From Eledone cirrhosa (Eukaryota): DNA of 64,000 nt. Position 1 is the stretch's first letter. Each line of letters opens with the position of its first letter. The stretch lies in assembly GCA_964016885.1 (NCBI GenBank), contig OZ024740.1:121892001-121956000 (forward strand), given 5' to 3'. The notes under the pieces were generated by a model. That model saw only the letters and a list, made by a program, of their open reading frames with translations. It had not been told where the DNA came from and did not search any database. Shown here piece after piece: positions 15,752 through 50,914 of this stretch. The position numbers were made by a program, and so were the translations under genes.

Positions 15752-15936
15752 TTGTTTCTACAATTGGCACAAGGCCAGAAATTATCCAATACAATACTGG
15801 TACTTTATTTTATCGACCCCGTAAGGATGAAAGGCAAAGTTAACCTCGGCGGGATTTGAACTCAGAATGGCAAGGGCCGTAAACATGAGCGTCAAATCAT
15901 GGCGTCCGACTCTCTACCGATACTGCCAATTCACCG
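15752..15936 (-). mobile_element. SINE copy lying in the (ATT)n tail of a Tx1-type LINE
   Basis: Near full SINE. (AAT)n lies on both sides (15720-15751 and 15937-15949) and the LINE 3' end follows at 15950. Confidence 0.9.
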
Positions 15937-17832: not shown

Positions 17833-18600
17833 ATAATGAAATGTCTTCAAATCTTTGATATGAGGGAGGAAAAACTAACGATGTTCATTCACTAGAGTTA
17901 TGTTCCACATCTGAAGATTCAGCAGCCAAAACACGCCTACTGCTATCGTCTTCAGTCAGGGTCATAAATCTATCAAGTCTCTATCTCTCAATAGCTGTAA
18001 AAGACGCTGGACAGGTCTAAGCTCAGCATCAAATCTGTAGAATTTAGGTCGGACGCAATTAGTGTCAGTGAGTACACACTCAATCACACACACACTCACA
18101 CACACCGATGCGATGTCAGAGAGAAAATATATACACCAACACAGTATGCACCGAAAGTTAGGTTACAAAACAACAAATGTTATATTGGTCAAATCTCAAT
18201 TTTAACGATGTAAATTAGAAACATTGGGTCAAGCACAGTAAGTAAATTCCGTTCAACGCAAGTAAATTCCGTTCAACGTTCTGCTATACGTTCTGGCAGA
18301 ACTAATGGCAATTCTATGGATGAACGGATTCATACGCGTGATGACTCATACGCGTTCAACGTTTTGCTATACGTGTATCGATTGAATTATAACATCCGTA
18401 TCGTCAAAATTGTCTATGTTTTGGTATATAAACATCCATGTTTAGAGCAAGTTGTCAGATGTACACTAATACTAGTAAATATATGAGCTATGTCAAAGTA
18501 CCTAGGTGGGTCAATGCAGGGGGATGCAGAACAATTATATGAAAGACGTAAAATAAGAAAATGTTTAAAATAAAAAATTAACTTACTTACTAAAATTTTC

Positions 18601-18682
18601 ACTCCAACTAATTAGTTTCTGTAATGGGATAAATATAGTTACACAATGTAACTATCGAAAATTCATTACGTCATCAGGGAGT
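18601..18682 (-). ncRNA. Type I hammerhead ribozyme with extended stem II
   Basis: Minus strand reads ACTCC-CTGATGA-[51-nt stem II]-GAAA-CTAATTAG-TT-GGAGT. Perfect 5-bp stem I, palindromic stem III, GUU cleavage triplet. Confidence 0.85.
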
Positions 18683-19135
18683 CTATTCTCAGCTAAATTC
18701 CCAGGCAATGCGCGGACACTAGGAACCCATATAAAAATAATAATTCAGTGGATGTAATAAGCTAGCGGGGACTAAATTCCATAGCACTGAAAAAGTTCAC
18801 TGCCTCTGGTCAGTGGTGTATTCTAAAGAATCAATCACGTGACACTGAGGTTAGTCAGTTAGGAGTGGGGTGGTATTATGACAAGAGCCTACTACTACTA
18901 CTATGAATTAGCAGTAGATTTGGCAAGTTTGCTCAACAAATAATTTGGAGATAAATATAGAGAATTAATACATCTACCAACATATGCGTACAGATGTATA
19001 CTAATACTAGTAAATATATAAGTTATGTCAAAGTACCCAGGTGGTTCAATGCAGGAGGATGCAGAACAATTATATGAAAGACGTAAAACAAGAAAATTTT
19101 AAAAATTAAAAATTAAATTACTTACTAAAATGTTC

Positions 19136-19217
19136 ACTCCAACTAATTAGTTTCTGTAATGGGATAAATATAGTTACACAATGTAACTATCGAGAATTCA
19201 TTACGTCATCAGGGAGT
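19136..19217 (-). ncRNA. Type I hammerhead ribozyme, second copy
   Basis: Same fold exactly 535 nt from the first; core intact. Confidence 0.85.
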
Positions 19218-19779
19218 CTATTCTCAGCTAAGTTCCCAGGCAATGCGCGGACACTAGGAACACATATAAAAATAATAATTCAGTGGATGTAATAAGCTAG
19301 CGGGGACTAAATTCCATAGCACTGAAAAAGTTCACTAGTAAGTAAGTTAATTTTTAATTTTTAAAATTTTCTTATTTTACGTCTTTCATATAATTGTTCT
19401 GCATCCCCCTGCATTGAACCACCTAGGTACTTTGACATAACTTATATATTTACTAGTATTAGTGTACATCTCTACGCATATGTTGGTAGATGTATTAATT
19501 CTCTATATTTATCTCCAAATTATTTGTTGAGCAAACTTGCCAAATCTACTGCTATTTCAAGTAGTAGTAGTAGGCTCTTGTCATAATACCACACCACTCC
19601 TAACTGACTAACCTCAGTGTCACGTGATTGATTCTTTAGAATCCACCACTGACCAGAGGCAGTGAACTTTTTCAGTGTTATGGAATTTAGTCCCCGCTAG
19701 CTTATTACATCCACTGAATTATTATTTTTATATGGGTTCCTAGTGTCCGCGCATTGCCTGGGAACTTAGGTGAGAATAG

Positions 19780-19861
19780 ACTCCCTGATGACGTAATGAA
19801 TTCTCGATAGTTACATTGTGTAGCTACGTTTATCCCATTAAAGAAACTAATTAGTTGGAGT
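19780..19861 (+). ncRNA. Type I hammerhead ribozyme, inverted copy
   Basis: ACTCC CTGATGA (19785-19791) ... GAAA (19843-19846) CTAATTAG TT GGAGT; a few stem II substitutions. Confidence 0.8.
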
Positions 19862-19911
19862 GAAAATCTTAGTAAGTTAATTTTTAATTTTTAAAATTTT
19901 CTTATTTTACT

Positions 19912-20014
<103 letters not shown>

Positions 20015-20319: not shown

Positions 20320-20505
20320 TTTAGGCACAATACCAACAATGTTGAGTGAGGGGTAATTCTACCCTAGTGCAATACTGATATTTTATTTTATCGACCCCGT
20401 AAGGATGAAATGCAATGCTAAACTCGGCAAGATGTGAACATATTTCGTAAAGGGTTGTATCTCTATGCCATAAAACATGCTGTTCAACACTCCTCTGCCA
20501 TTCCA
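20320..20505 (-). mobile_element. Diverged SINE copy
   Basis: TTTTATTTTATCGACCCCGTAAGGATGAAA core plus a TTAGGCACAA tail. Confidence 0.75.
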
Positions 20506-20879
20506 CAGACAACAGTATTGATATCGGATAGTTTTCCAATTAGCCAATCATTTTCCATTACACTGGTTGACAATTCTTAAAAAAAGAGCTGCCTGACTGT
20601 AAATTGATTCAAAATCATATCTATAATACTTCGTTCATAGAGTACTGAGTTTTTGTTTTCTCATCACGGTTACATACATTTTATTATGTCTAAATAGTGA
20701 GTTTCGATTTTTATCACGAGCTCATCAGACAAGAATTCCATCTAGTTTTTGTCTATTACGCCAGTAGCGATATTCTATAGTAACAAGAGTCACCATTTAG
20801 CCTCAATAAAAAGAATATTACTCTACTTCAGCATTTCTATCAGCTGTCAACCACATACGGATATATATATATATGATAA

Positions 20880-21085
20880 TAATGGAGCTGCGGCGTTGCA
20901 AATGGGTTACATATGAAAAAGTGAGTCCTTCATCAGTGACCCTCCAACCGTCCTAGGCATTTCATCGCTGTCCCAACGACTTTTTGTAGCCGTTGTTCGC
21001 ACCAACCTGAGGTATATGGCCTTTAAAGCGATGAAATGCCTAGGACGGTTGGAGGATCACTGATGAAGGACTCACTTTTTCATAT
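20880..21085. repeat. Fold-back copy of the 22585-23300 repeat family (59-bp inverted arms)
   Basis: 20911-20969 is the reverse complement of about 21027-21085; the centre is the reverse complement of about 22680-22739; flanked by TA tracts. Confidence 0.85.
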
Positions 21086-21235: not shown

Positions 21236-22136
21236 CAGGGTGTTCGGGATAAATTTGACAGAATAATATTTGGTTGTTTTTTAAGATGTTTTAAATTCAT
21301 TCATGCCCACTAGGCTTTATTTGAAAGTTTAAACCCTCCTTCATTCATATATGTGATGACAACGAGAATGGATGACTGGGAGCCACCTGAATCATGGAAG
21401 AGTATAACTTGTATCATGATGATTCGCGCCGGCCATCAAAATAAGGAGATTATGGTCGCTGCTCAATGCTCCCTGAACACAGTAAAAACAATCCGGCATG
21501 AACTGGAGAATTGCAATGGAGACTACGAGGCTGTGGCTAGAAGAAAGAAACATAACAGAAGATCTGATTGCTCTCGCACAGCAGAATTCCTCGAAAATCT
21601 GCAGAAAAAAGTGTTGGAGGACCCTGGCATCGGAATTCGGTCTTTGTCGCATGAATTGAAGCCCTGGATAACAAGGGTAGCCAATAATAGGCCGTATGTA
21701 TGGCAGCTGGATTCGGCCCCCTGCCACACCTCGGGGAAAAGTCAAAAATGGTTGTCAGCCAAGTTTTACGACTACACCAGTCCCAATGTTTGGCCTCCGA
21801 ACTCCCCTGATCTTAACCCGATGGACTATTATGTATGGGGCGCTGTAGAGAAAGACACCAATCGCCGTGCCAGTACTACAAAAGCCCAGTTAATCGACAG
21901 AATTAAAGTAGTTTTTGAGGGCCTTCCCAGGCAAAGTGTAAAATCAGCTTGCTCTAGGTTCCGGGCCCGGCTTGAGGCTGTAATAGACGCTAATGGAGGT
22001 TATTTTGAGTAAAACTCTTTGACAATAGTGTAATTTCCTTCTCCATTGAATTTCTTTTAAACCAAATAAATTTTGTAGATACCAAGCACTTTCTCTTTTT
22101 CCTGATGAAACTGTCAAATTTATCCCGAACACCCTG
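21236..22136 (+). mobile_element. Tc1/mariner DNA transposon, DD37D (maT) family, internally deleted
   Basis: Perfect 26-bp TIRs CAGGGTGTTCGGGATAAATTTGACAG (21236-21261, 22111-22136), TA on both sides, 901 bp. Confidence 0.95.
21353..22012 (+). CDS. Internally deleted maT transposase (219 aa)
   Basis: N-terminal HTH-like region fused in frame to QLDSAPCH...WPPNSPDLNPMDYYVW. There are 37 residues between the second and third catalytic D; the first D region is missing. Confidence 0.85.
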   Translation: MMTTRMDDWEPPESWKSITCIMMIRAGHQNKEIMVAAQCSLNTVKTIRHELENCNGDYEAVARRKKHNRRSDCSRTAEFLENLQKKVLEDPGIGIRSLSHELKPWITRVANNRPYVWQLDSAPCHTSGKSQKWLSAKFYDYTSPNVWPPNSPDLNPMDYYVWGAVEKDTNRRASTTKAQLIDRIKVVFEGLPRQSVKSACSRFRARLEAVIDANGGYFE

Positions 22137-22394: not shown

Positions 22395-22578
<184 letters not shown>

Positions 22579-22584
22579 TATATA

Positions 22585-23298
22585 TAAGAATAAACGTGCT
22601 GCGTGGTTGCTAATGGGTTACATATTAATAAAGTTAGTCCTTCATCAGTGATCTTCCAACCACCATTGGTATTTCATCGCTTTGAAGACCATATACATCC
22701 GGTTGGTGCGAGCAACGGCTAAAATAAGTCATTGGGACACGTAAATAAAGGGCACACGAGAGTGTAAACAAACAAATATGGTGAAGCAACGAAAAGTGAG
22801 GAAGAAGGAGTCAAGTCCCAAATTTCCATGAATATAAGTTTGGCGAAATCGTGAACGAGAGAGAATAATGACCATCAAACCTGGTTGGAATGTGAGCAAG
22901 GAAGGAATTCCGTACAGGTCTAACGGGAGGAAGAAGGGATCTAGTCTGTGAATTCGGTGAACGTAAGTTCTGTGAAATCGTAGACGAGAGATAGAAAAAT
23001 AGCGACCTATCTGACCAAGGGTGCGAAAGAAAAGAATTACGCACAGGTCAAACGGGAAGAAGGAGAAGGAGGAGAGGTAGTAACAGAGAGTGAGTGAGTG
23101 AAGGGTGAGGAAGAGCTAACAGAGAGAGTGACTGTTAGAGAGGGTAAAGATACAGAGAAAGAGGAAGCAGTAAGAACGAAATAGACGGGTCAGAACTTTT
23201 GAAAAAATATGTGTAAATATGAGAATATACGTGCTGCGTGGTTGCTAATTGGTTACATATGAATAAAGTTAGTCCTTCATCGTTGATCTTCCAACCAT

Positions 23299-23300
<2 letters not shown>
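22585..23300. mobile_element. Non-coding element with ~78-bp terminal direct repeats (Penelope-like pseudo-LTR arrangement)
   Basis: 22585-22662 is repeated at 23222-23298; internal diverged ~128-bp duplication (22811-22937 and 22941-23070); TA tracts on both sides. Confidence 0.65.
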
Positions 23301-23350
<50 letters not shown>

Positions 23351-35548: not shown

Positions 35549-36450
35549 GTACTGAAGGAGGGGACAATAGACCAGAGGATGTCCAAGGAGGAAATAACAA
35601 CAAGGAGAAAGAGCAGCCTTCATGTAAAATCCCTTCATAGTACCTTCTTTGAGAAAACTGAATTCAGAGATCCACAGACATGGAACTGGTTGAAAAGAGG
35701 TGACCTTAAAAAGGCTACAGAAGGAATGTTAATGGCTGCGCAAGGGCAGGCCCTCAAAACGAAGTGGTTGAAACACCATATTTACAAGGAGGAGGCTAGC
35801 CCACTGTGCAGGTTCTGTGGAGAGAGAGAGGAGACTGTGGCTCACATTGTATCCGAGTGTAAACACCTAGCCCAGACTCACTATAAGGGCTGGAGACATG
35901 ATGTGATGGGAAGGGTGATCCACTGGCACCTATGCAAAGTAAACAATTTACCACATTCTGAGAAGTGGTATGAGCATAAGCCAGAGTCGGTGTTAGAAAA
36001 CGATCAGGTGAAGGTGCTATGGGATTTTAGGATACAGACGCACAAGAAACTGGAACACAATAGGCCTGACCTGGTGGTTTTGGACAAGCAAAAAAGATCG
36101 TGTATGATTGTAGATGTAGCCTGCGCAGTTAACACGAGAGTGCAAGAAAAGGAGAGGGAGAAAATTAACCGATACCAGGACTTAAAGTGGGAGGTGAAAA
36201 GGATTTGGAACTGCCATTAAGTCAGTCTTCCCGATTGTCATATGCGCACTAGGTACTATCTCAAAGAGTTTCCAAGGATTGTTAAAGAAAATTAGTCCAA
36301 AACGGCTTTTTGGAACACTCCAAAAGGCATGCTTGCTGGGAACAGCGAGAACCCTCCGATACGTCCTGAATATCTGAGGCTGCAGGTAGAGGCTTGATAT
36401 TCATTTCAACAAACTTTCCAGTTAAATAACATTAATGACTGAGACTCAAA

Positions 36451-36451
<1 letters not shown>
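35546..36451 (+). mobile_element. 5'-truncated R4/Dong-type non-LTR element (RLE domain and 3' UTR)
   Basis: ORF 35579-36220 has CRFC...H...C, RHD and RPDLVV...D motifs; same family as 50008-50914; (AAT)n on both sides. Confidence 0.92.
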
Positions 36452-36508
<57 letters not shown>

Positions 36509-39500
36509 CATTTCATTTATTAGCCACAAGGGCCGACATGTAGGGGACAATACAAAGACATTCACCCACCTTTTAGCAAATGTACTGGGGGGCAGCACTT
36601 CTCTCTCCACCCTCACCTTCCTTTCCAGGTGAAATTTGAAGAAGTTGATGAGGTATTGGCTGAAGAGAAAAGTGTCTGTCTTTAGTCCTTTCAACCTGGT
36701 CCACCATATAATCTCTTTCGCAACTACCACCAGACAGAGGAAAATGTCCTGCTCTTCCTGACCTAAGGAAGGTGGCGGCTCGATCTTCACTATGGACTCG
36801 GCCGATAGCTGGATTCGTTCCACACGCGACAGTAGCTGTTCGACATAACTCCACAAGTCAGTAATGCACGGACATTCGACAAGTGCGTGCAGAACGGTTT
36901 CGTCGTTCTGTGCGCCTCTTGGGCAGGTCCGTCTGACAGCACTTCCGTGCCTGTAGAGTTTATCCCGAACCGGCAGTGCCCCCCGGTAGCACTGCCAAGC
37001 GAGGGATATCTGGAAATTGTCCATCGTCCCCGGCTCAAAAGTCCTCCGGTACAGACTGGTCAGTTCGACTTCGTCGAGGCCCAAAGCTTCTCCGAGTGCG
37101 TCATCGCACTTGCCCACCACTAATCCTCTATAGAACTCTATAGTGGAAGTTCCACTGATCGCATTGCCCGCTTGGTAGCGGGAAGTGAGTGCCTGGCAAC
37201 ATTCCAACTGCCAGTCACCCAGTCTCGGTCTCTTCTTGACCCGGGACTGCAGCTCAGTCAAAGAAATGAGCTGCGGAAAGGCCCGTCTGATAAACGACGA
37301 CCACACCTGTTCTCCATTGAGGCAGTATATCTGCAGATGTCGCAGCCTCAACGCATGTTTGCGCATCATTAGCCACGGCATGCCCAGCCCTCCACAAGAA
37401 TTTGAAGAGGAGCCGTTCTAACTTGACGAGGCGCGGACGGGGGAAAGGCACGACGGTTAGGCGGTAGTAGATGACGGACGCGATGTACGCATTCGCCACC
37501 TCCGCGCGACCTTCCAGTGATAGCTTCATCCCAGCCCATTTTTGGGTGAGATTGGCTACTCTGCTCGTTACCTCGTTCCAATTCTTTTCCACCTGGAGGT
37601 CTGGTCCGAACCAAACCCCGAGCAACTTTACCTGTCCGTCCGTCCAGCGCCCCACGACGCTGTTGGACGGCATGGGCCTGCCTCTCAGGTTCCGAGCTGC
37701 AATCCCACAGACTTTTCTGTTTGGCTCCTGTCAACCTTTCATATTCCTTCAGTAAGGTGCCGACCACCTCGATTTCTGAGGTGTTCGACACCATCACGGT
37801 GATGTCGTCCGCATAAGCCGACACCGCCCTTCCACGTCCCGGTTCGAGTGGGATGCCCTGCAACTGCTCCAGCTTCCGCAGTAAAGGCTCGAGACTCAAT
37901 ACGTACAGAAGGGAAGAGAGAGGGCACCCTTGACGGACCGATCGGGAGAGCCGAAATGGTTCCGAGAGGTGGCCATTAACCTTGACCACCGAGCGTGTGC
38001 CGCTGTTCATTGCAACGATCCAGCTTCTAAAGACAGGGCCGAAGCCAGCTGCTTTGAGGACAAACTCCAGATACCGATGGTCGACCCTATCGAATGCTTT
38101 CGATTGATCTAAATTGATCAGTGCCCCACCGAAGCCAGGTTTACACCCTACCCTCTCTATGATGTATCGCATGAGGTGGAGATTGTCGTGAATGGACCTG
38201 GCTGGCATTGCGCAAGTTTGCGCCTCCCCGACGAAATCCTCGAAGACAAGCGCCAATCTCTTTGCTAACACCTTGGCCAAAATCTTAAACTCTGTGTTGA
38301 GCAGAGTTATGGGCCTGAAGTTGTCTAATGTATCCCTCTTGTTCTCGTCTTTCCTTATCAGCGTCACCACTCCCCTGCTCACAGAACTGGGAATACTCCC
38401 ATTCTGCTGCCAGTTGCAGTAGAGTGCTTCGAGGAGTTCGGAGAACAAGTCTGGCATATTTACGTAAAGCTCGTAGGGCAGGCCATCCAAACCGGGTGAC
38501 TTGCGCCTTATGCAGCAGACAAGGGCGTCCTGAATTTCGGATGAAGTAATCAGCCTTTCTCAGCGCTCAGCGTCGACCGTCGAGATGCGCGGCAGGCCGT
38601 CAAGGTAGGGACTGAAATCTGCTACTCTCTCTGACTCGCCCCTCTCCGTGAACAACCGAGCAAAGTGCTGGCGAAAGGCCTCACACATCCGCTTGGAATC
38701 GCTTATCTCGTGTCCGTCTCGGTCCGCCAAAGACCGAATTGTAGTTTTATTACCACGCTGCGCCTCCGCCACGTGGGCCCATCGAACAGCTTTAGTTCCC
38801 TTGTGTCTCAGCGCACGCGCCTTAACTCTGACAATGCAACCTTCGTGTTTGGCGTTGAAGAAATGGTCTAATGCCATTCTCGCCGCTAGCACGTCAGTTG
38901 CGATGCCACTACAAATAGCCTCGTCTATCTTATCTACCAGCTCCCCCTCCTTTCTATTTTTCTCTAACGCTAGTTCTTTGCTGAACTCTATCGAAGTTAC
39001 TCTAATCTCTCTTTTGAGAGCCCCCCACCATCTGTTGTTGATGATCACCCTGTCAACTTTTGCTTAACTAAATTGTTGACTCGGTCCCTGTAAGCCTTAC
39101 GTGCCGGAAATGACATGTTCAGCTTCCAGTAACCAGGTCCTAACCTACGCGTTTTATTTAGGTCGACCGTACAGATCACAAATTTGTGATCTGAATAGGT
39201 GACCGTTTTAAAAAGTGGACAGCCCACACTATTTCTATCTATTTTCGTAATGAAGATCCTGTCTATATACGATCTAGATGACCCCATTCGGTTGGTCCAT
39301 GTCCATACTGTCACATTGGGGAAATCTAGTCGATACCTGTCAGACAGTTGGAACTGGCTGAGTAGGTGCTTCAGGCTTTTGCACCCCCCGCTCCTATCGG
39401 CTACTCCCACACAATGCCAGCGTGCGTCTAAGATGCCATCCCAGTCCCCCGCTAACAGTAAAGGGCGAGACGTACCCAGAAAGGTCTCCAGGCGCCTAAA

Positions 39501-39866
39501 GAAGTCAGGTCGTCCGGCCCCTGTAGGGGCGTAGACGGCCAGCAGTCTAAAGGCAACACCTTCGCTACTGCTCACATCCAATACCACCAACTTACCCTCC
39601 GGGTCCCGGAAGATCGACCTTACCTCGAGATCCAGTCCTTTCCTAAACAGCACTGCCACCCCACCCCCCATTCCCGGCCTGCTAACAGATGCGAAGATCT
39701 GATAGTCGTCGAAAATGGGGGCTAGTGCGCACGTGTCGGAAATTCTTGTCTCGCTTACGGCAATCACGTCCATTTCCAGCGACCGGAGGTCGTTGAGCAG
39801 GTGTCCCTGCTTCCAGGGTGACCCCAGGCCGCGGACATTTAAACTTCCTACTCTTAATATGGCCAT
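36446..39866 (-). pseudogene. Family A ORF2: APE endonuclease, reverse transcriptase, C-terminal zinc finger
   Basis: SLNVRGL, SET, VYAP, YIDRI, SDH and GYWKLN (APE); FRPITLLN, DQSKAFDRV, RQGCPLS and AYADD (RT); split across several frames. Confidence 0.9.
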
Positions 39867-42045
39867 ATTGGTAAGCTAAGAGAGAGAGGGAAGGTTTACT
39901 TACCTCCCGGGTCTTGTGAAGGTCGGGTGGTTCGACCTCCATGGTTGGTGGGGTTTGTTTTGGGAACCCCTTTAAAAGTCTTGATGTGGATTTCACATTC
40001 GGGGTTCCCACGTCTTGAGGAAAGCTCTCTCGAATTTCTTTGAAGGAATTGAGTGACATTCGGACCAGAAGCAAATCTTCTGGCACGCAAAATGTGCTCA
40101 TTTCAAAAATCTCCCCCTCTGTTTGAATGTCCTCGCTTCGCGCTAAGAGGGCCATCAGTTTATCGTTGGCCCTTCTGACAAGCACGAAGTTTTTAACATT
40201 TTGTTGGTGTGGTTTTATTTGTTTTCGTTTTGGTGAAGGTGGTGGCGATGGTTTTGGTGGTGTTGTTTCGGGTATGTCTATGTTTGTTGTAGGTGTGGTG
40301 TCTGCAATTTCAGGTATTTGTGTGTTTATTTGTACTTGTGTTTGTTTAGGTTGTTTGCGTTTCGGGGATTGTGGAGGTGGTGTCGATGTTGCTGTTGGTG
40401 ATGATGTTATTGGGGAAGTGTTTGCGTTAGTGGTGTCTGTATTTTTTGTTGTGTGTGTTTTTGTGTTTTGTTGGGGCTTTTTTTGTGAGTTTTCTCTGTT
40501 TTTTGGCACTTTGGGGTTTTCCTTCATCTTCGCTGCTGGAAGACAAAGGGTCTGTGGCTGTGAGTGTCTCTGTGTCTGTGTGTGCATTTATTTTTTGTGT
40601 ATGTGTATAATTGGAGGGGTAGAGGGAGTGGGAGAGCTTTCCTCGTTTTCTCCTTGGATTGGTTTTGGTGTTGGTGGTGATCTGGCTGATTTTGATGTTG
40701 TTGTCCGTGTTTTTGTTGATGTTGTTTTTGGTGGTGGTGGTGGTGCAGCTTTCCGTGCTGACACTGGCGTTGGCAACAAAGGAGGTTTGCGACCCCCTGC
40801 ATTTTTGCGCTGAGGGAAGAAGTCTTGAAGATGCATTGCTTCCCGCAGACGAAGCAGCGTGGCCTTCTTCCGTCAATCATTAGTTGGATTGTTGTTGCGT
40901 CCTGCAGCGGGCAAAATCCGGGATGTTATTCATTTCCTCCGGTTTTATTTGGAGAAGAATCTCCAAATCCATTCGGGACCAGTCCTTCTCTCTGTCCTGT
41001 TGATGTCCAGGAGGGTAGTATCTGTCCCCTCCTCGATTACGCATCCCAGCAGCCACCATATGTTCATTCCTGGTGGGATGCTGGGAATGCGTACCTTCAC
41101 TGTCCTTTTACCCATATAGGACGGATGCATGATAATGCGTTGCGTTCTGCAGGGGGTCACCGTGTGCTTAATAGCGAGGGCCTCTGTTTTGAACAGTACC
41201 GAGATGGTACCGAACTGTTTGCCTCATGCTTTGTACTCTATGTTACTTCCGATGTACTCCAAAGCAGCCTCTACCTCTGCAAGTTCCACTTTTCGTGTCT
41301 GCACCGAAATACATCGAAAGAGCACCGTCCTCCTTTGCATGGCCGCTATTGCCTCGTCCGGGATGGTCAGGTTTGCCCAGGACTTCTCCCGTTTAATTAG
41401 CCTCCACGCTTTGGCCAACTTTATCGCTAATATCAATATCAATATTCAATAAGCGCTTTGTTTTTGCTGCTGCTGCAGCAAATGTGGTGTTTCTGATGCT
41501 CTTATTGTTGTTGTTGTCATTCTTGATGTTGCCACCGCCATCGTTGCTTGCATTGAAGCTGTCGGTGTTATTGTCGTTATTGCTCTGAGTTGTTGTTGTA
41601 GTGGTGGTGGTGGTGGTGGCGGTGGTGGTGATGTCGTTTTCAGATGATACTGCTGCTATGGCAGAAGGTTGTGATGGTAGCTTTTGAGTGTTGCCTTCAC
41701 ATTCAGTAGAGTGGGTGACAGACATGACTGTAGCCGTCGTAGTCGTGGTGAAATCTACAGTGGCTGCCTTTAAACTTTTGACCTGAACGTTGTTTACCGT
41801 TTCAAGGTCGAACATTTCCATAAATTTCTTTTGGTGGGGAAGCGATTTTTTTCGAAGTTTTTAAAAGTAAATCTGAATATTCGGGCTTAAAGCCCGAATA
41901 TTGATAGGTATCCCTCTCTTTAAATCAAGATGTGTACCTTAAGTTTCGTTAATGACAAGAAAATACAAAAAAAGACATTTAAAACAGCTTAAAGTTACAA
42001 ACCTTTTCCCCCGCAGATTTGTACTGTCTTCACAAATGTGCGGCG

Positions 42046-42101: not shown

Positions 42102-45100
42102 TTGTCTTTATTAACCACAAGGGTTTACGTAAAGTAGACATTAAGGACAGTACAGGACAATACAGGACGGTACAAATGGGCATTTATGCGTGTAAAAAAC
42201 AAGAAACTGAGGATGTAATAATAGAACAATGAAAAAATTCTCCAATAGGGGGAAGACTTCCGAGGGACATTCGTGGAGAAAGCCCATTAAAAAGCCACAG
42301 TGACCCTGACATAGAGGGCAAGTGCCCTCTCCCAGTTTTCCACCTTTAAATTTACAGACACATACTCAGAGTAGGCCCATTCACTCGGGCCATTCTTGCC
42401 TCTCTCACCCATCTTTCAACAAAATGCTGGGAAGAGAGCACTTCCCTTTCTACCCTGATTTTCCTTTTTAAATGAAATTTGAAAAAGTTAATCAGGGCAT
42501 CACCGAAGAGGTAAGTGTTCGTCTTCAGCCCTTTCAAACGTGTCCACTATACTATCTCTTTCGCCATGGCCACCAGACAGATAAAAACTTCCTGCCCTTC
42601 CCGGCTAAAGGAAGGGGGCGGGGCAATCCTCACGATGGACTCTGCTGATAGCTGGATCCGTCCTACACGCGACAGCAGGTGTTCGACATAAACCCACAAG
42701 TCAGCAATGCTCGGACACTGGACGAGTGCGTGCAGGACGGTTTCGGCGCCATGCCCGCATCTCGGACATGCCCGGCTGACGGCACCTTCATGCCTGTAGA
42801 GTTTATCCCAAACTAGCGAAATCCTCAGTAGCACTGCCAGGCTAGGGATTTCTGAAAGATGTCCATAGGCCCCGGCCCGAAAGTTCTTCCGAAGAGATTG
42901 GCTGGTTGATTTTCTTCGACGCCTAGAGTTTTCCCAAGTACGTCGTCGCTCTTCCCCACCACTAATCATCTATAGAACGCCAAGGTGGAGTTTCCACCGT
43001 TCACATTACCTGATTGGTCGAGGGCTGTGAGCACCTGAAGAGATTCCAGTCTCCAAGCGATCCCTCTCGGTCTTCGCTTGATCGAGGACTACAGCTCCGT
43101 CAAGGAGACGAGCTGGGGAAAGACGCGTCTAGCAAACGGCGACCACACCTGCTCACCGTCGAGGAAGAGGTGGAGATGTCGTAGCCTGAGCGCGTGTCAG
43201 CGCATCATCAGCCACGGCATTCCCAGTCCTCCACGTAGCGTGTGTTGACAGCAGATGGACCGCCTGACCATCGGATCGCGTCCCTTCCACAAAAAGCCAA
43301 AGAGCAAACGCTCCAGCGCAGTCAGGCGGGGCTTAGGACAAGGTACGACGGTCAGGCGGTAGTAGATGACGGACGTGATATACGCGTTAGCCACCTCCGC
43401 TCGACCTTTCAGTGATAGCTTCCTCTCGGCCCATTTCTGGGTGAGAGAAGCCATCCTGCTCGTCACCTCTTCCCAGTTTTTGTCCGTCTGGAGGTCCGGA
43501 CCGAAACAGACCCCGAGCAATTTAACTGGTCCGTCCGTCCAGCGCCCGACGACGCTGTTGGACGGCATGGACCTGCCTCTCCACGTGCCGAGCTGCAGGC
43601 CCACTGACTTTTCCTGGTTGAACATTGCTCCTGTCACCGCTTTGTTTCCTCTAAGTGTAGTGCCGATCGCCTCGATGTGTTTGGCGTTCGACACCACTAC
43701 GGTGACATCGTCCGCATATGCTGACACGGATCTTCCGCATCCAAGTTCGCGAGGGAACCCCCTCAACGTCTCCAGTTTGTGCAGTAATGGCTCGAGAGTC
43801 AATACGTACAAGAGGGACCAGATAGGACATCCTTGGCGGTCCGAGCCCATGATATTGAACGGTTCCGAAAGTTGACCGTGCACTCTCACCACAGAGCAGA
43901 TTTCGCTGTGCATGGCAGCGATCGAGCCTCTGAAGACGGGCCCAAAGCCAGCCGCCCTCAGGACTGCCGCTGGGTAACGATGGTCGACCCTATCGAAAGC
44001 TTTCGACTGATATAAATTGATCAAGGAGACACCCGTGCCAGGTTTGTTCGCTACCATCTCCACGATGTATTGCATGAGGTGGAGTTGTCACGGATGGATC
44101 TGTCGGGTATGGAGCATGTCTGTGCCTCTCCCGCCAGACCACCAACGACAAGCGCCAACATCTTTGCTAGCACCTTGGCCAAAAGCTTGAACTCTGTGTT
44201 TAGCAGAGTTATGGGCCTGAAATTATCTATGTTATCCCTCTTGTTCGGATCCTTTCTGACCAGCGCCACAGCTCCTAGGCTCACAGGGAATTCTCCCGTT
44301 CTGTTGCCAGTTGCAGTAGACGTCCGCCAAGAGGCCTCCGAACAAATCTGGCATTTGTACGTAAAGTGTATAGTGTAGACCATCCAAACCAGGCGATTTA
44401 CCCCTTGTGCAGTCAGTCATTGCCTCCCGTACTTCACTGGCTGTTATCGGCTATTCGCAACACTCCGCCTCAGTGGCCGAGAGCCGCGGCAGTCCATCGA
44501 GGTAGACATAAAGTCCATCCCTCGAACCGGCCCGCCGCTGCACCCGAACAACCGAGCGCAGTGTCGCTGAATAGCTTCACACATTTGCCCGGGATTGAGT
44601 AGCATGCGCCCGTCCTGGTCCTCCAAAGACCGGATCGTGGCTTTGTTGCCACGACGCGCCTCCGCCACGCGTGCCCATTGAACGGCTTTCGTCCCCTCGT
44701 GTCTGAGAGCACGCAACCTAGCTCTGACAAGGCAGCCTTCCTGCTTTGCATTGAAGAATTGGTCAAGGGCCAATTTCACCGCAAGTACGTCGGTCGCGAT
44801 ACCTTTGCTAATTGCCTCGCTTAATTTTCTAACTTTCTCCCTCTGCTCTATTTTTCTCTATTGCTAAAGCCTTACTAAACCTAATGGACTGTATTCTAAT
44901 TGCCCTTTTCAGAGCAAACCACCACTTGTTGTTGACGATGGCCCCGTCAACGCCCGCTTAACTAGTTCGCTAATCCGGTCTCTGTAGGCCTTGCTCGCTC
45001 GTAAGGACGCGTTTAGCTTCCAGTAGCCGGGTCCTCGTATATGAAGCCTATCTAAGTCAAGCACACCGATCACGAATTTGTGGTCCGTGTAGCTGATTAT

Positions 45101-48100: not shown

Positions 48101-48124
48101 ATACGATTTACTAAGTAGGTCGAC
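42101..48124 (-). mobile_element. Full-length Tx1/L1-type LINE, family B (decayed)
   Basis: ORF2 fragments 45773 to 42352 (SINARGL, TDH, GYWKLN, SKAFDRV, RQGCP, AYADD, CPRC...H...C). ORF1 fragments from 47937 with the CX2CX4HX4C knuckle CLVCGEGTHLKAFC. (AAT)17 and (AAT)22 flanks. Confidence 0.93.
46094..46278 (-). mobile_element. Complete tRNA-derived SINE inserted in family B ORF1
   Basis: A-box-like TGGCAGTATCGG and B-box GAGTTCAAATCC; perfect 18-bp TSD TTGTTGTTCAAATTTAAT (46076-46093, 46279-46296). Confidence 0.95.
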
Positions 48125-48191
<67 letters not shown>

Positions 48192-48192
<1 letters not shown>

Positions 48193-50914
48193 GACAAGAA
48201 AAAGCAGAGCCGTGGTGGAAGAAACGACTGAGTGGTCAAATCGGGGAAATGAGAAATGACATAGGAAAGCTTGAGTCACTACTGAATGGGACACTAAAAA
48301 ACATAGGCACTAAAAATAGACTGGAAATAAAGTACAAAACTAGGAGGAAAAAGCTAAATATTATCATAGAGGAACTGAAGCAACGCATTGTAGCAAAGAG
48401 TGCCAAAATCAGGCGATACGAGAACAGAGTCAGTCAGTATAAACAGAACCGCATGTTCGACAACAACCAGAAGATGCTGTTTGGACAGCTTGAGGGGAAA
48501 GAAAGAGGCAACGACTTGATCCCTGGGGCGGAGCAAACTAAAACATTCTGGAGAGGAATATGGGAGCAGGATGTTAGACATAATGTCCAGGCAGGGTGGA
48601 TTGAGACAGTACAGAGGGAGATCGGTGAGCAGGCACACCAACAATCTGATTTGAGTATCACAGTTGAAACTCTTAAGGGGCAGGCCAGAAAACTAACCAA
48701 CTGGAAATCACCAGGCCCAGATGGTGTGCAGGGGTATTGGATTAAACATTTAACATCCCTCCATCCGAAGCTGACAGCCATGTTCAATGAGTGCTTGGTG
48801 TCGGGTGAGGTGCCAGAGTGGTTGACAAAAGGTACCACAGTTCTGATAATGAAAGACCGAATCAAGGGTAATGATGTTACCAACTATAGACCTATCACGT
48901 GTCTGTCCGTAATGTGGAAACTGTTGACGAGCATTGTGTCTGAGGAAATCTACCATCACCTCCACACAAACAACTTGTTACCGGACGAACAGAAAGGATG
49001 CCGAAAGAAGTCACGTGGTACAAAGGACCAGTTACTTATTGATAAGATGGTAATGGGGAATTGCACGAGGAGACACACTGATCTTGCCATGGGATGGATA
49101 GACTACAAAAAGGCATTTGACATGGTGCCTCATTCTTGGATCACCAAAAGCCTGGAGATCTTCAGGGTGGCAGATAACATCAGACAGTTGCTGGGCAGGA
49201 GTATGGGCTCCTGGGAGACAGAGTTGACATCAACTGGAGTATCCTTGGGAAGCGTGAAGATCAAGAGAGGTATCTTCCAGGGAGATAGCCTGTCCCCTCT
49301 GTTGTTTGTCCTTGCCCTGATGCCCTTGACCATTATGCTGCGAAAAGTGAGAGCAGGATACAAGTTGGGAAAGGGAGCGCTTACCATCAATCACCTCCTC
49401 TTCATGGACGATCTTAAGCTCTTCGGGAAAAGTGAGAAGGAGTTGGATGTGCTTGTTGACACTGTCCGTATTTTCAGCAGTGATATATGTATGCAGTTTG
49501 GTATTAGTAAATGTGGAGTCATTGTGATGAGGAGGGGTAGGTTGGGCAGAAGTAACGGGATCCAGATACCAACAGGTGAGATGATAAAGGAAATTGACTC
49601 TGAGGAAGGATACAAGTATTTGGGCGTTCTGGAGGCTGATGGTATAAAGAACAAAAAAAAGAAGGAATTGTTAAGAACTGAATACATTCGGAGAGTAAGG
49701 AGCGTATTGAAGTCACATCTGAACAGCAGAAATGCCATAAGCGCAGTAAATTCCCGAGCTGTGTCTATTATTAGGTACAGTGCGGGAATTCTGAGATGGA
49801 ATGTTGCTGAACAAAAAGAAATGGATAGGAAGACTAGGAAGCTATTGACTATCTACAACATGTTCCGCAAGAGGAGTGATGTCGATAGACTCTACCTAAG
49901 GAGATCTGAGGGCGGAAGAGGTCTTATCAGCATAGAGGACTGTGTTCAGATGGAGAAAAACAACCTATACAAATACGTGACCTATAGTAAGGAGCCAATG
50001 CTCAGAACTGTACTGAAGGAGGGGACAGTAGGCCAGGGGATGCCCAAGGAGGAAATAACATCAAGGAGGAAGAGCAGCCTTAAGGGAAAATCCCTTCATA
50101 GTACCTTCTTTGAGAAAACTGAATTTAGAGATCCACAGACATGGAACTGGTTGAGAAGAGGAGACCTCAAAAAGGCTACAGAAGGAATGCTAATGGCTGC
50201 GCATGAGCAGGCCCTCAAAACGAATTGGTTGAAGCACCATATTTACAAGGAGGAGGCTAGCCCACTGTGCAGGATCTGTGGAGAGAGAGAGGAGACTGTG
50301 GCTCACATTGTGTCCGAGTGTAAACACCTAGCCCAGACCCACTATAAGGGCTGGAGATACGATGTGATGGGCAGGGTGATCCACTGGCACCTGTGCAAAG
50401 CAAATAATTTACCACATTCTGAGAAATGGTATGAGCATAGGCCAGAGGCGGTGATGGAGAACAATCAGGTGAAGGTGCTGTGGGATTTTAGGATACAGAC
50501 GGACAAAAAACTGGAACACAATAGACCTGACCTGGTGGTTGTGGACAAAGAAAAAAGATCGTGTCTGATTGTGGATGTGGCCTGCCCATTCGACACGAGA
50601 GTGCAAGAGAAGGAGAGGGAGAAAATTAACCGATACCAGGACCTAAAGTGGGAGGTGAAAAGGATTTGGAACTGCCATGAAGTCAAAGTGATCCCGATTG
50701 TCATAGGCGCACTGGGGACTATCTCCAAAAGTTAACAGGGATGGTTAAAGAAAATCGGCCCCTTCACGCTTTTTGGAAGGCTTCAAAAGGCATGCTTGCT
50801 GGGAACAGCAAGAACCCTCCGATACGTCCTGAATATCTGAGGCTGCAGGTAGTGGCTTGATATTCATTCCAACGGACTTTCCATTTAACCAACATCAATG
50901 ACTGAGATTCAAGG
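48192..50914 (+). mobile_element. 5'-truncated R4/Dong-type RLE non-LTR retrotransposon
   Basis: Open frame begins directly after (AAT)22; short 3' UTR followed by an AAT tract (50915-50977). Confidence 0.95.
48249..50735 (+). CDS. RT + CCHC + restriction-like endonuclease ORF (828 aa)
   Basis: WKSPGPDG, YRPITCL, DYKKAFD, GIFQGDSLSP, FMDDLKL, CRIC...H...C, RPDLVV and KINRY motifs; the stop appears premature relative to the 36.3-kb copy. Confidence 0.92.
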   Translation: MRNDIGKLESLLNGTLKNIGTKNRLEIKYKTRRKKLNIIIEELKQRIVAKSAKIRRYENRVSQYKQNRMFDNNQKMLFGQLEGKERGNDLIPGAEQTKTFWRGIWEQDVRHNVQAGWIETVQREIGEQAHQQSDLSITVETLKGQARKLTNWKSPGPDGVQGYWIKHLTSLHPKLTAMFNECLVSGEVPEWLTKGTTVLIMKDRIKGNDVTNYRPITCLSVMWKLLTSIVSEEIYHHLHTNNLLPDEQKGCRKKSRGTKDQLLIDKMVMGNCTRRHTDLAMGWIDYKKAFDMVPHSWITKSLEIFRVADNIRQLLGRSMGSWETELTSTGVSLGSVKIKRGIFQGDSLSPLLFVLALMPLTIMLRKVRAGYKLGKGALTINHLLFMDDLKLFGKSEKELDVLVDTVRIFSSDICMQFGISKCGVIVMRRGRLGRSNGIQIPTGEMIKEIDSEEGYKYLGVLEADGIKNKKKKELLRTEYIRRVRSVLKSHLNSRNAISAVNSRAVSIIRYSAGILRWNVAEQKEMDRKTRKLLTIYNMFRKRSDVDRLYLRRSEGGRGLISIEDCVQMEKNNLYKYVTYSKEPMLRTVLKEGTVGQGMPKEEITSRRKSSLKGKSLHSTFFEKTEFRDPQTWNWLRRGDLKKATEGMLMAAHEQALKTNWLKHHIYKEEASPLCRICGEREETVAHIVSECKHLAQTHYKGWRYDVMGRVIHWHLCKANNLPHSEKWYEHRPEAVMENNQVKVLWDFRIQTDKKLEHNRPDLVVVDKEKRSCLIVDVACPFDTRVQEKEREKINRYQDLKWEVKRIWNCHEVKVIPIVIGALGTISKS

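Follow-up and report, generated by a model that had tools for sequence, protein, structure and literature searches.

In the window analysed here, a stretch of 64,000 nucleotides from Eledone cirrhosa (contig OZ024740.1), an array of non-coding 535-nt units carries a hammerhead ribozyme motif in each of three places, which raises the question of what kind of element this is and how it came to be inserted. Animal retrozymes of 51-972 bp have been argued to be non-autonomous Penelope-like elements (bioRxiv 10.64898/2026.07.22.740005), and the function of hammerheads in Penelope-like elements has been called unclear (PMC8557442). The array is probably one insertion of a dispersed non-coding retrozyme, likely a non-autonomous Penelope-like element, which is predicted to be cleaved, to form a circle and to borrow a reverse transcriptase (RT). 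The class of element is known; what is new is how the ribozyme is built, that this design recurs in several families, and how clean the insertion signature is.

The array comprises 1.65 tandem units on the minus strand and about 1.1 inverted units on the plus strand (Table 1). A preliminary description of the locus had proposed a 535-bp unit in 1.65 tandem and about 1.07 inverted copies, which is confirmed by the 535-nt spacing and the 95.7% identity of the minus-arm units. The array had been placed at 18456 to 19910; the start stands, but the end does not, as the inverted arm runs 12 nt further to 19922. The cut positions named earlier give, as predicted, an exact 535-nt monomer from cut to cut (19140-18606). 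Numbered such that +1 is the base right after the predicted cut, the inverted arm ends at +70, the first fixed 3' end of the family. The minus arm was probably clipped after insertion, because its end at +150 falls short of the family's usual +70 or +182-193. The unit contains no ORF, and a Penelope RT is absent among the 21 ORFs of the window that were scanned. The remaining window holds LINE and DNA-transposon debris and microsatellites; its 877-codon RT frame was considered as a Penelope frame and rejected, since by eye it reads as a LINE-type RT. Short dispersed repeats were also seen near the array (20860-20969, 22571-22681 and 23206-23316; 15792-15914 and 20370-20492). Within the body of the unit, CACGTG is followed by GATTGATT (19621-19626 on the plus strand and equivalent positions); this combination, which we take to be a possible promoter element, is present in several subfamilies and lies outside the invariant blocks of 16 monomers.

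Table 1. Positions of the array and its hammerheads, of other features of the window, and of related families at other loci (L numbers)
Feature	Position	Strand	Remarks
Tandem arm, 1.65 units, 881 nt	18456..19336	-	monomer +340..+535, +1..+535, +1..+150
Predicted unit RNA	18606..19140	-	cut-to-cut monomer, exactly 535 nt
Head-to-head inversion junction	19336..19336	.	two 5'-truncated arms, 1-nt overlap
Inverted arm, ~1.1 units	19336..19922	+	monomer +14..+535, then +1..+70
(TA)49 microsatellite	19917..20014	.	putative insertion target
Hammerhead copy 1 with pseudoknot strand	18601..18690	-	predicted cut 18606/18605
Hammerhead copy 2	19136..19225	-	predicted cut 19141/19140
Copy 2, stem I	19217-19213/19140-19136	-
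Copy 2, core CTGATGA	19212-19206	-
Copy 2, core GAAA	19154-19151	-
Copy 2, stem II region	19205-19155	-	stem III palindromic
Pseudoknot 5' strand GAGAAT	19220..19225	-	within a block invariant across all tested subfamilies
Pseudoknot partner ATTCTC	19192..19197	-	5' side of stem II internal loop
Hammerhead copy 3	19772..19861	+	predicted cut 19856/19857
Copy 3, pseudoknot strand	19772-19777	+
Splice-donor-like GTAAGT	19872..19877	+	16 nt past predicted cut; putative function
LINE-type RT and endonuclease frames, 877-codon RT frame, DDE_3 transposase fragment	36446-39875, 43197-44087, 48102-50735, 21314-22012	-, -, +, +
Neptune-type families, long open frames	L061:3809-6622, L062:2988-5519, L063:1775-5062, L064:4722-6629
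F2a	L062:7010-7919; L144-L173		459-467-nt unit, 50-nt stem II; pseudoknot TGGAAA/TTTCCA, same register as F1
F2b	L192, L205, L206, L220, L223		~485 nt; pseudoknot GGAAAA/TTTTCC, same register as F1
F3	L189, L190, L195, L201, L209, L212, L214, L217, L221, L222		~655-677 nt; pseudoknot GAGTT/AACTC, in 3/17 copies (two loci) GAGCG/CGCTC, same register
F4 and F5	L174, L184, L185, L203, L207, L210, L211		long-stem hammerheads

All three hammerheads of the window share ACTCC/GGAGT, CTGATGA, a 51-nt spacer, GAAA, CTAATTAG and a GTT site, and the core CUGANGA ... GAAA, the A15.1-U16.1 pair and an NUH site are present in each. GUU is a less favoured hammerhead site, a point against the favoured explanation. 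The earlier statement that each copy is a complete type I hammerhead holds for these motifs in all three copies but fails for the stem II strands GUAAUG/CAUUAC in copy 3, which has CATTAA where the others have CATTAC, and this C-to-A change breaks its first stem II pair. Stem II had further been described as closed by a C-A mismatch; the C and A at its foot are better read as two unpaired extras, N10 and N11, that flank a regular first pair of G and C, and the published min-HHR descriptor for Penelope hammerheads permits both (PMC4209133). Covariation was examined in 20 copies picked to span the subfamilies. The core is intact in 18 of these 20 aligned copies, stem I is paired in 99% and the outer stem II in 97%, stem III is invariant, and 9 of the 28 pairs have changed on both sides (3 of 6 in the outer stem II and 6 of 8 in the inner hairpin). 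Over the whole set, 93% of cells are paired, compared with 38-47% when the partners were slid. None of 500 shuffles, nor any slid control, reached the covariation of stem II; the slid control weighs more here, as do the types of pairs, because shuffling ignores relatedness. The suggestion that a long stem II lets the motif escape hammerhead searches is true of the min-HHR descriptor, which allows a stem II of 3-7 bp, a loop of 3-10 nt and two extra nucleotides, with a maximum of 26 nt (PMC4209133), and which cannot match the motif because the 51-nt spacer between the core halves exceeds this maximum. Rfam gave no match in the window, no hammerhead family on copy 2 at E values up to 10 and nothing in 12 other loci; as short-stem hammerhead loci were among those missed, the failure is not diagnostic of a long stem.

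In the 3.0-Gb genome, an 18-mer that covers the cut site together with GAAA and stem III has 9,628 exact matches, compared with none for the reversed control. A DNA search of the genome returned 2,903 candidates, and among the 40 of them that were scored those that match over the full length, the query aside, show 91-97% identity. Identity between subfamilies is 72-98%. A set of 16 natural monomers, 496-571 nt long and 72-100% identical to one another, has only five invariant blocks of at least 7 nt, including the core and the pseudoknot-strand block CTGAGAATA directly upstream of stem I; the longest ATG ORF in three family monomers is 27-30 aa. The unit belongs to a dispersed multi-copy family without apparent LTR structure. 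Both the copy number and the doubly changed pairs bear out the preliminary description, as does the conservation of the core among dispersed genomic copies; all this supports a retrozyme-like family that is mobile, exists in many copies, bears a hammerhead and has kept its core, rather than a single-locus artefact. Its mobile, multi-copy character as claimed earlier is thus upheld, but not that it is an undescribed kind, as retrozymes have been reported as Penelope-like in a 2026 preprint (bioRxiv 10.64898/2026.07.22.740005); the earlier description had not noticed the pseudoknot, the Penelope-type signature of insertion or the other long-stem families. That the arrays arose as satellite DNA through DNA-level recombination or as an artefact of assembly, their hammerhead-like motif being dead or due to chance, is highly improbable and refuted as the main origin by short arrays scattered over many chromosomes, by fixed 3' ends in microsatellites and by compensatory stem II changes next to an invariant core, even though recent DNA-level duplication has occurred in some arrays, such as L029, which combines 99.6% identity between units with a differing tail. 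When flanks were compared in 109 locus records, no common body emerged; they contain many unrelated repeats. A pattern scan of metagenomes gave two matches, which by eye both lie within prokaryote-like coding DNA and were dismissed as chance, and a search for short-stem relatives of the hammerhead gave further subfamilies of the same 535-nt family.

The insertion signature was read from three samples of arms, namely subfamily A (without the window locus and duplicate records), subfamily B and unselected first loci on one chromosome. In 44 of 45 arms of A, 42 of 44 of B and 26 of 35 unselected arms, the 3' end lies within +60-75 or +170-195, and a dinucleotide repeat follows the arm end in 40/45, 40/44 and 27/35 arms, respectively; the 5' ends of the family's arms are scattered. 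Inverted arms are present at 42 of 72 loci (A 19/25, B 12/28, unselected 11/19). Arms longer than one unit make up 29/45 in A and 30/44 in B, both of which were selected for full-length matches, and 9/35 in the unselected sample, and arms reach up to about 2.75 units, running through the cut junction. Target-site duplications are unreadable, because the flanks are dinucleotide repeats. Penelope elements are characterized by partial tandems, inverted 5' copies and a microsatellite bias (PMC8557442), and a Penelope element has been described on which the RT starts internally, at two sites downstream of the hammerhead (PMC11167929). On this pattern, the insertions look likely to be Penelope-made. 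The unit resembles Penelope pseudo-LTRs (pLTRs) in its partial tandems, inverted 5'-truncated copies and microsatellite targets (PMC4209133; PMC8557442; PMC11167929), and pLTR hammerheads in two internal 3' ends downstream, an unpaired base at the foot of stem II and a short stem I. It differs from pLTRs in lacking an ORF and in the distance between its 3' ends, about 115 nt instead of the 30-40 nt of the Penelope tail, which counts against the favoured explanation. Similarity also exists to Chlamys MRC1, a non-autonomous Penelope-type element with head-to-tail insertions and microsatellite bias; elements of the MRC1 type, however, are described as lacking canonical hammerheads, and their 3' ends generally resemble those of autonomous partners (PMC8557442).

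As to the source of the enzyme, the genome contains near-intact Neptune-type ORFs that stay open over 938 and 1,096 codons, and the 3' ends of the Neptune-type elements inspected also run into (TA)n and carry short-stem hammerheads, unlike the long stem of the unit. Among 50 GIY-YIG loci, drawn from about 10,600 candidates, no autonomous element shares sequence with the unit, nearby separate insertions aside, and the Penelope partner is therefore one that we infer. Such a small sample leaves some room for the proposal that the units are 5'-truncated pseudo-LTR ends of an unsampled autonomous Penelope-like element, or that another non-LTR enzyme mobilises them, and the preprint indeed derives retrozymes from pLTRs and single terminal repeats (bioRxiv 10.64898/2026.07.22.740005). 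We regard this as improbable, as the hammerhead is preceded by another unit, an inverted arm or a microsatellite and not by an ORF, the Penelope ORF pieces found nearby come from at least five different families, and the two elements examined closely, at L069 and L062, end in their own pLTR before the unit, which belongs to the 535-nt family and to F2a, respectively. L069 had been a candidate for a Penelope ORF joined to the unit and was rejected, the unit being a separate insertion behind the element's own pLTR and (TA)n.

Some further observations concern the Neptune-type and short-stem elements. Some Neptune-type families have a GAGCCACT...TATAAAA-like motif upstream of the 3' short-stem hammerhead. 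At L078 and L080, the Neptune-type 3' end resembles the +70 end of the unit (a pyrimidine tract, CGTCTTT and a terminal CATATA), a similarity of low complexity. Short-stem hammerhead families were seen at L071:7579-9901 and at L063, L066, L067, L068, L070 and L079, one of them as a tandem array of ~490 nt; such families were unmatched by Rfam in the loci scanned. A link to the 'HHR_half_core' of Naiad elements was not supported: searches for two short motifs in the published supplement were negative, and the one of eight consensus sequences that was read by eye has no such hammerhead.

The second distinctive trait of the ribozyme is a pseudoknot. In the 535-nt family (F1), the strand GAGAA(T), which is invariant and lies upstream of stem I, can pair with (A)TTCTC in the stem II internal loop; in copy 1 of the window one of these pairs is G-U. 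A loose long-stem pattern gave 13,926 further matches in the genome, compared with 1,720 for the control, and further long-stem families have units of about 460-680 nt, the first lead being an unrelated tandem unit found by chance. A pseudoknot of at least 5 bp can be formed in 61/73 hammerheads of F1, 27/31 of F2a, 7/7 of F2b and 11/17 of F3. When flanks were swapped among F1, F2 and F3, pairing was seen in 0-4%; F4 flanks pair with F1 loops in 52%, the one high control cell, and the random control gave 7.5%. F2a and F2b count as one group because they cross-pair, and since copies are not independent, the support across families amounts to three independent groups. Within F1, double-sided changes were found in 0 of the 6 pseudoknot pairs among the 20 copies. 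These comparisons support a 5-7-bp pseudoknot between the stem I flank and the stem II internal loop as the putative tertiary contact of stems I and II. Stem I-stem II pseudoknots are known and needed for fast cleavage; they occur in about 40% of a hammerhead collection, in all three types, and the human C10orf118 ribozyme has one of 5 bp (PMC3088659). The unit resembles these ribozymes in having a base-paired pseudoknot in place of a loop I-loop II contact, but its partner strand is an internal loop in a long stem II that is capped by a second helix, and it combines the pseudoknot with a dimer-type stem III and a location in high-copy retroelements (PMC3088659). A long-stem hammerhead with an internal-loop pseudoknot was not found described in the part of the literature covered.

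A splice-donor-like motif lies 15-18 nt after the cut in 73/73 hammerheads of F1, 31/33 of F2a, 7/7 of F2b, 13/17 of F3 and 4/7 unassigned ones, compared with 0/8 in F4 and F5, the sole chance control; the long-stem F4 and F5 also lack the pseudoknot (0/8). A consistent splice acceptor before stem I was not found by eye across the families. F2a, with 2,284 candidates in the genome, likewise has two fixed 3' ends, which are about 105 nt apart. It is conceivable, though on balance we stop short of calling it probable, that four statements hold together: that the architecture, a two-helix stem II of about 50 nt with a pseudoknotted internal loop, is an unrecognised type I subclass which is inactive as a monomer and switched on by dimerisation; that it defines a retrozyme superfamily with more than 10,000 motifs in one genome which published minimal descriptors miss; that a fixed module after each cut, with the donor at +15-18 and the internal RT starts, represents minimal Penelope cis-signals; and that genomic junctions would record cleavage in vivo. 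With its ribozyme, pseudoknot strand and two RT starts kept across 28% divergence, the 535-nt family offers a compact system to ask whether cleavage and circles drive Penelope-type mobility. Whole families can go uncounted with short-stem descriptors, and reports that other genomes have or lack hammerheads may need re-examination. In F3, the core is preceded by a TTGGCGCG motif similar to one in Neptune-type 3' regions, which is presumably E2F-like.

The unit resembles animal non-LTR retrozymes in its tandem non-coding units with a type I hammerhead and a palindromic stem III each, its low GC content, its thousands of copies and the co-occurrence of Penelope-like elements (PMC7229834). Its length is within the 51-972 bp of the preprint (bioRxiv 10.64898/2026.07.22.740005), but exceeds the 170-400 nt of the circles demonstrated experimentally for retrozymes (PMC7229834), and here the unit is known from genomic copies. 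Animal retrozymes have a 4-bp stem and a loop-loop contact, whereas the unit has a 51-nt stem II with an internal loop and pseudoknot; it also differs in its short dispersed arrays, its inversions and its two fixed 3' ends in (TA)n. Judged by its sequence, the unit thus has the published hallmarks of both a retrozyme and a non-autonomous Penelope-like element.

In the mechanism we favour, a locus with more than one unit would be transcribed, two hammerheads would pair via their palindromic stem III, and cleavage would follow after GUU. The long stem II would dock on stem I through the 5-7-bp pseudoknot, pairings that are backed by conservation and covariation, and in a lone copy the predicted tie between core and stem III would keep a monomer or circle switched off. 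In line with this, the core of a lone hammerhead is paired to stem III in three of four lowest-energy folds of monomers, and the 12-nt stem III palindrome is calculated to pair as a duplex at -10.8 kcal/mol and not as a hairpin; these predictions fit the dimer model of PMC4209133. By analogy with the retrozymes of coral, mussel and axolotl, the 535-nt RNA would then be ligated to a circle. A Penelope RT/GIY-YIG protein, most likely of the Neptune type, would nick (TA)n, and reverse transcription would start internally at +70 or about +185, where the fixed ends are observed, would continue beyond the cut junction, covering at most about 2.75 units before it stops at random. As the observed pattern suggests, a second, inverted arm would often be made from the same template.

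Whether the template is a circle is a separate matter. In vitro, hammerhead cleavage was dispensable for the insertion of an anole element, and no RNA-seq reads were reported to end at the cut (PMC11167929); among frog retrozyme dimers, one of nine was cleaved (bioRxiv 10.64898/2026.07.22.740005). The same element and Penelope enzyme might use a linear template, either uncleaved multimers or cleaved monomers joined by template jumping, with a hammerhead that trims ends or cuts only with protein and with circles not serving as the intermediate. We consider this unlikely, though it is the most serious competitor: in the anole system, most of the substrate was RNA that had not been processed, and the ribozyme depended on protein (PMC11167929). 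Variants within arrays bear on both possibilities. Shared non-majority variants amount to 34% of variant sites in tandem and 18% in inverted copies of subfamily A, compared with 6.5% between loci, to 17% and 19% compared with 2.5% in subfamily B, where L138 distorts the tandem figure, and to 29% and 59% compared with 6.8% in F2a, so that sharing is commoner within a locus than between loci. A ratio of rare shared variants drawn from this comparison was not relied on, being partly built into its definition and, in B, inflated by misaligned pieces of L138. With L020 and L138 left out, sites covered by at least three copies have 60 variants common to every copy, 22 that part of the copies carry and 254 confined to a single copy. 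The copies of the window have no non-majority variant in common, which counts against the favoured explanation. For most loci, one template per insertion fits, be it a circle or a young linear multimer. L011:1421-2842 is a head-to-tail array of two subfamilies that switches within about 150 nt containing the cut site, a possible template jump between cleaved RNAs, and L002 has a deletion in three of five hammerheads; together with the 22 partly shared variants, these two loci can be squared with one circle per insertion only by assuming template switching or subsequent conversion, and they speak for a linear template. L029, with its recent duplication, is a third locus that departs from one template per insertion. 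However, purely linear copying only shortens arrays, yet subfamilies that differ by as much as 28% still have arrays longer than one unit, and most arrays hold units of one subfamily. The circular folds of three family monomers are stable (z -4.3 to -4.9), which also argues for circles, if weakly.

A small pile-up of 5' junctions at +1 speaks for the favoured mechanism and for the linear template alike. Of 20 junctions near the hammerhead (23 minus three mutated full copies), four, from three loci, lie at +1/+2, and genome matches that lead from (TA)n to +1 lie at the cut in 12 of 16 cases, compared with three loci at one control position. This excess may be a faint trace of cleavage in vivo, with microhomology as a confounder. 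Most early apparent starts at +1 proved to be an artefact of a 30-nt cut-off.

At one further junction (G000:C2:265083846-265083892), the first bases after the cut are present twice, both times with an additional G in front, as would be expected if the RT had met an RNA end at +1 two times.
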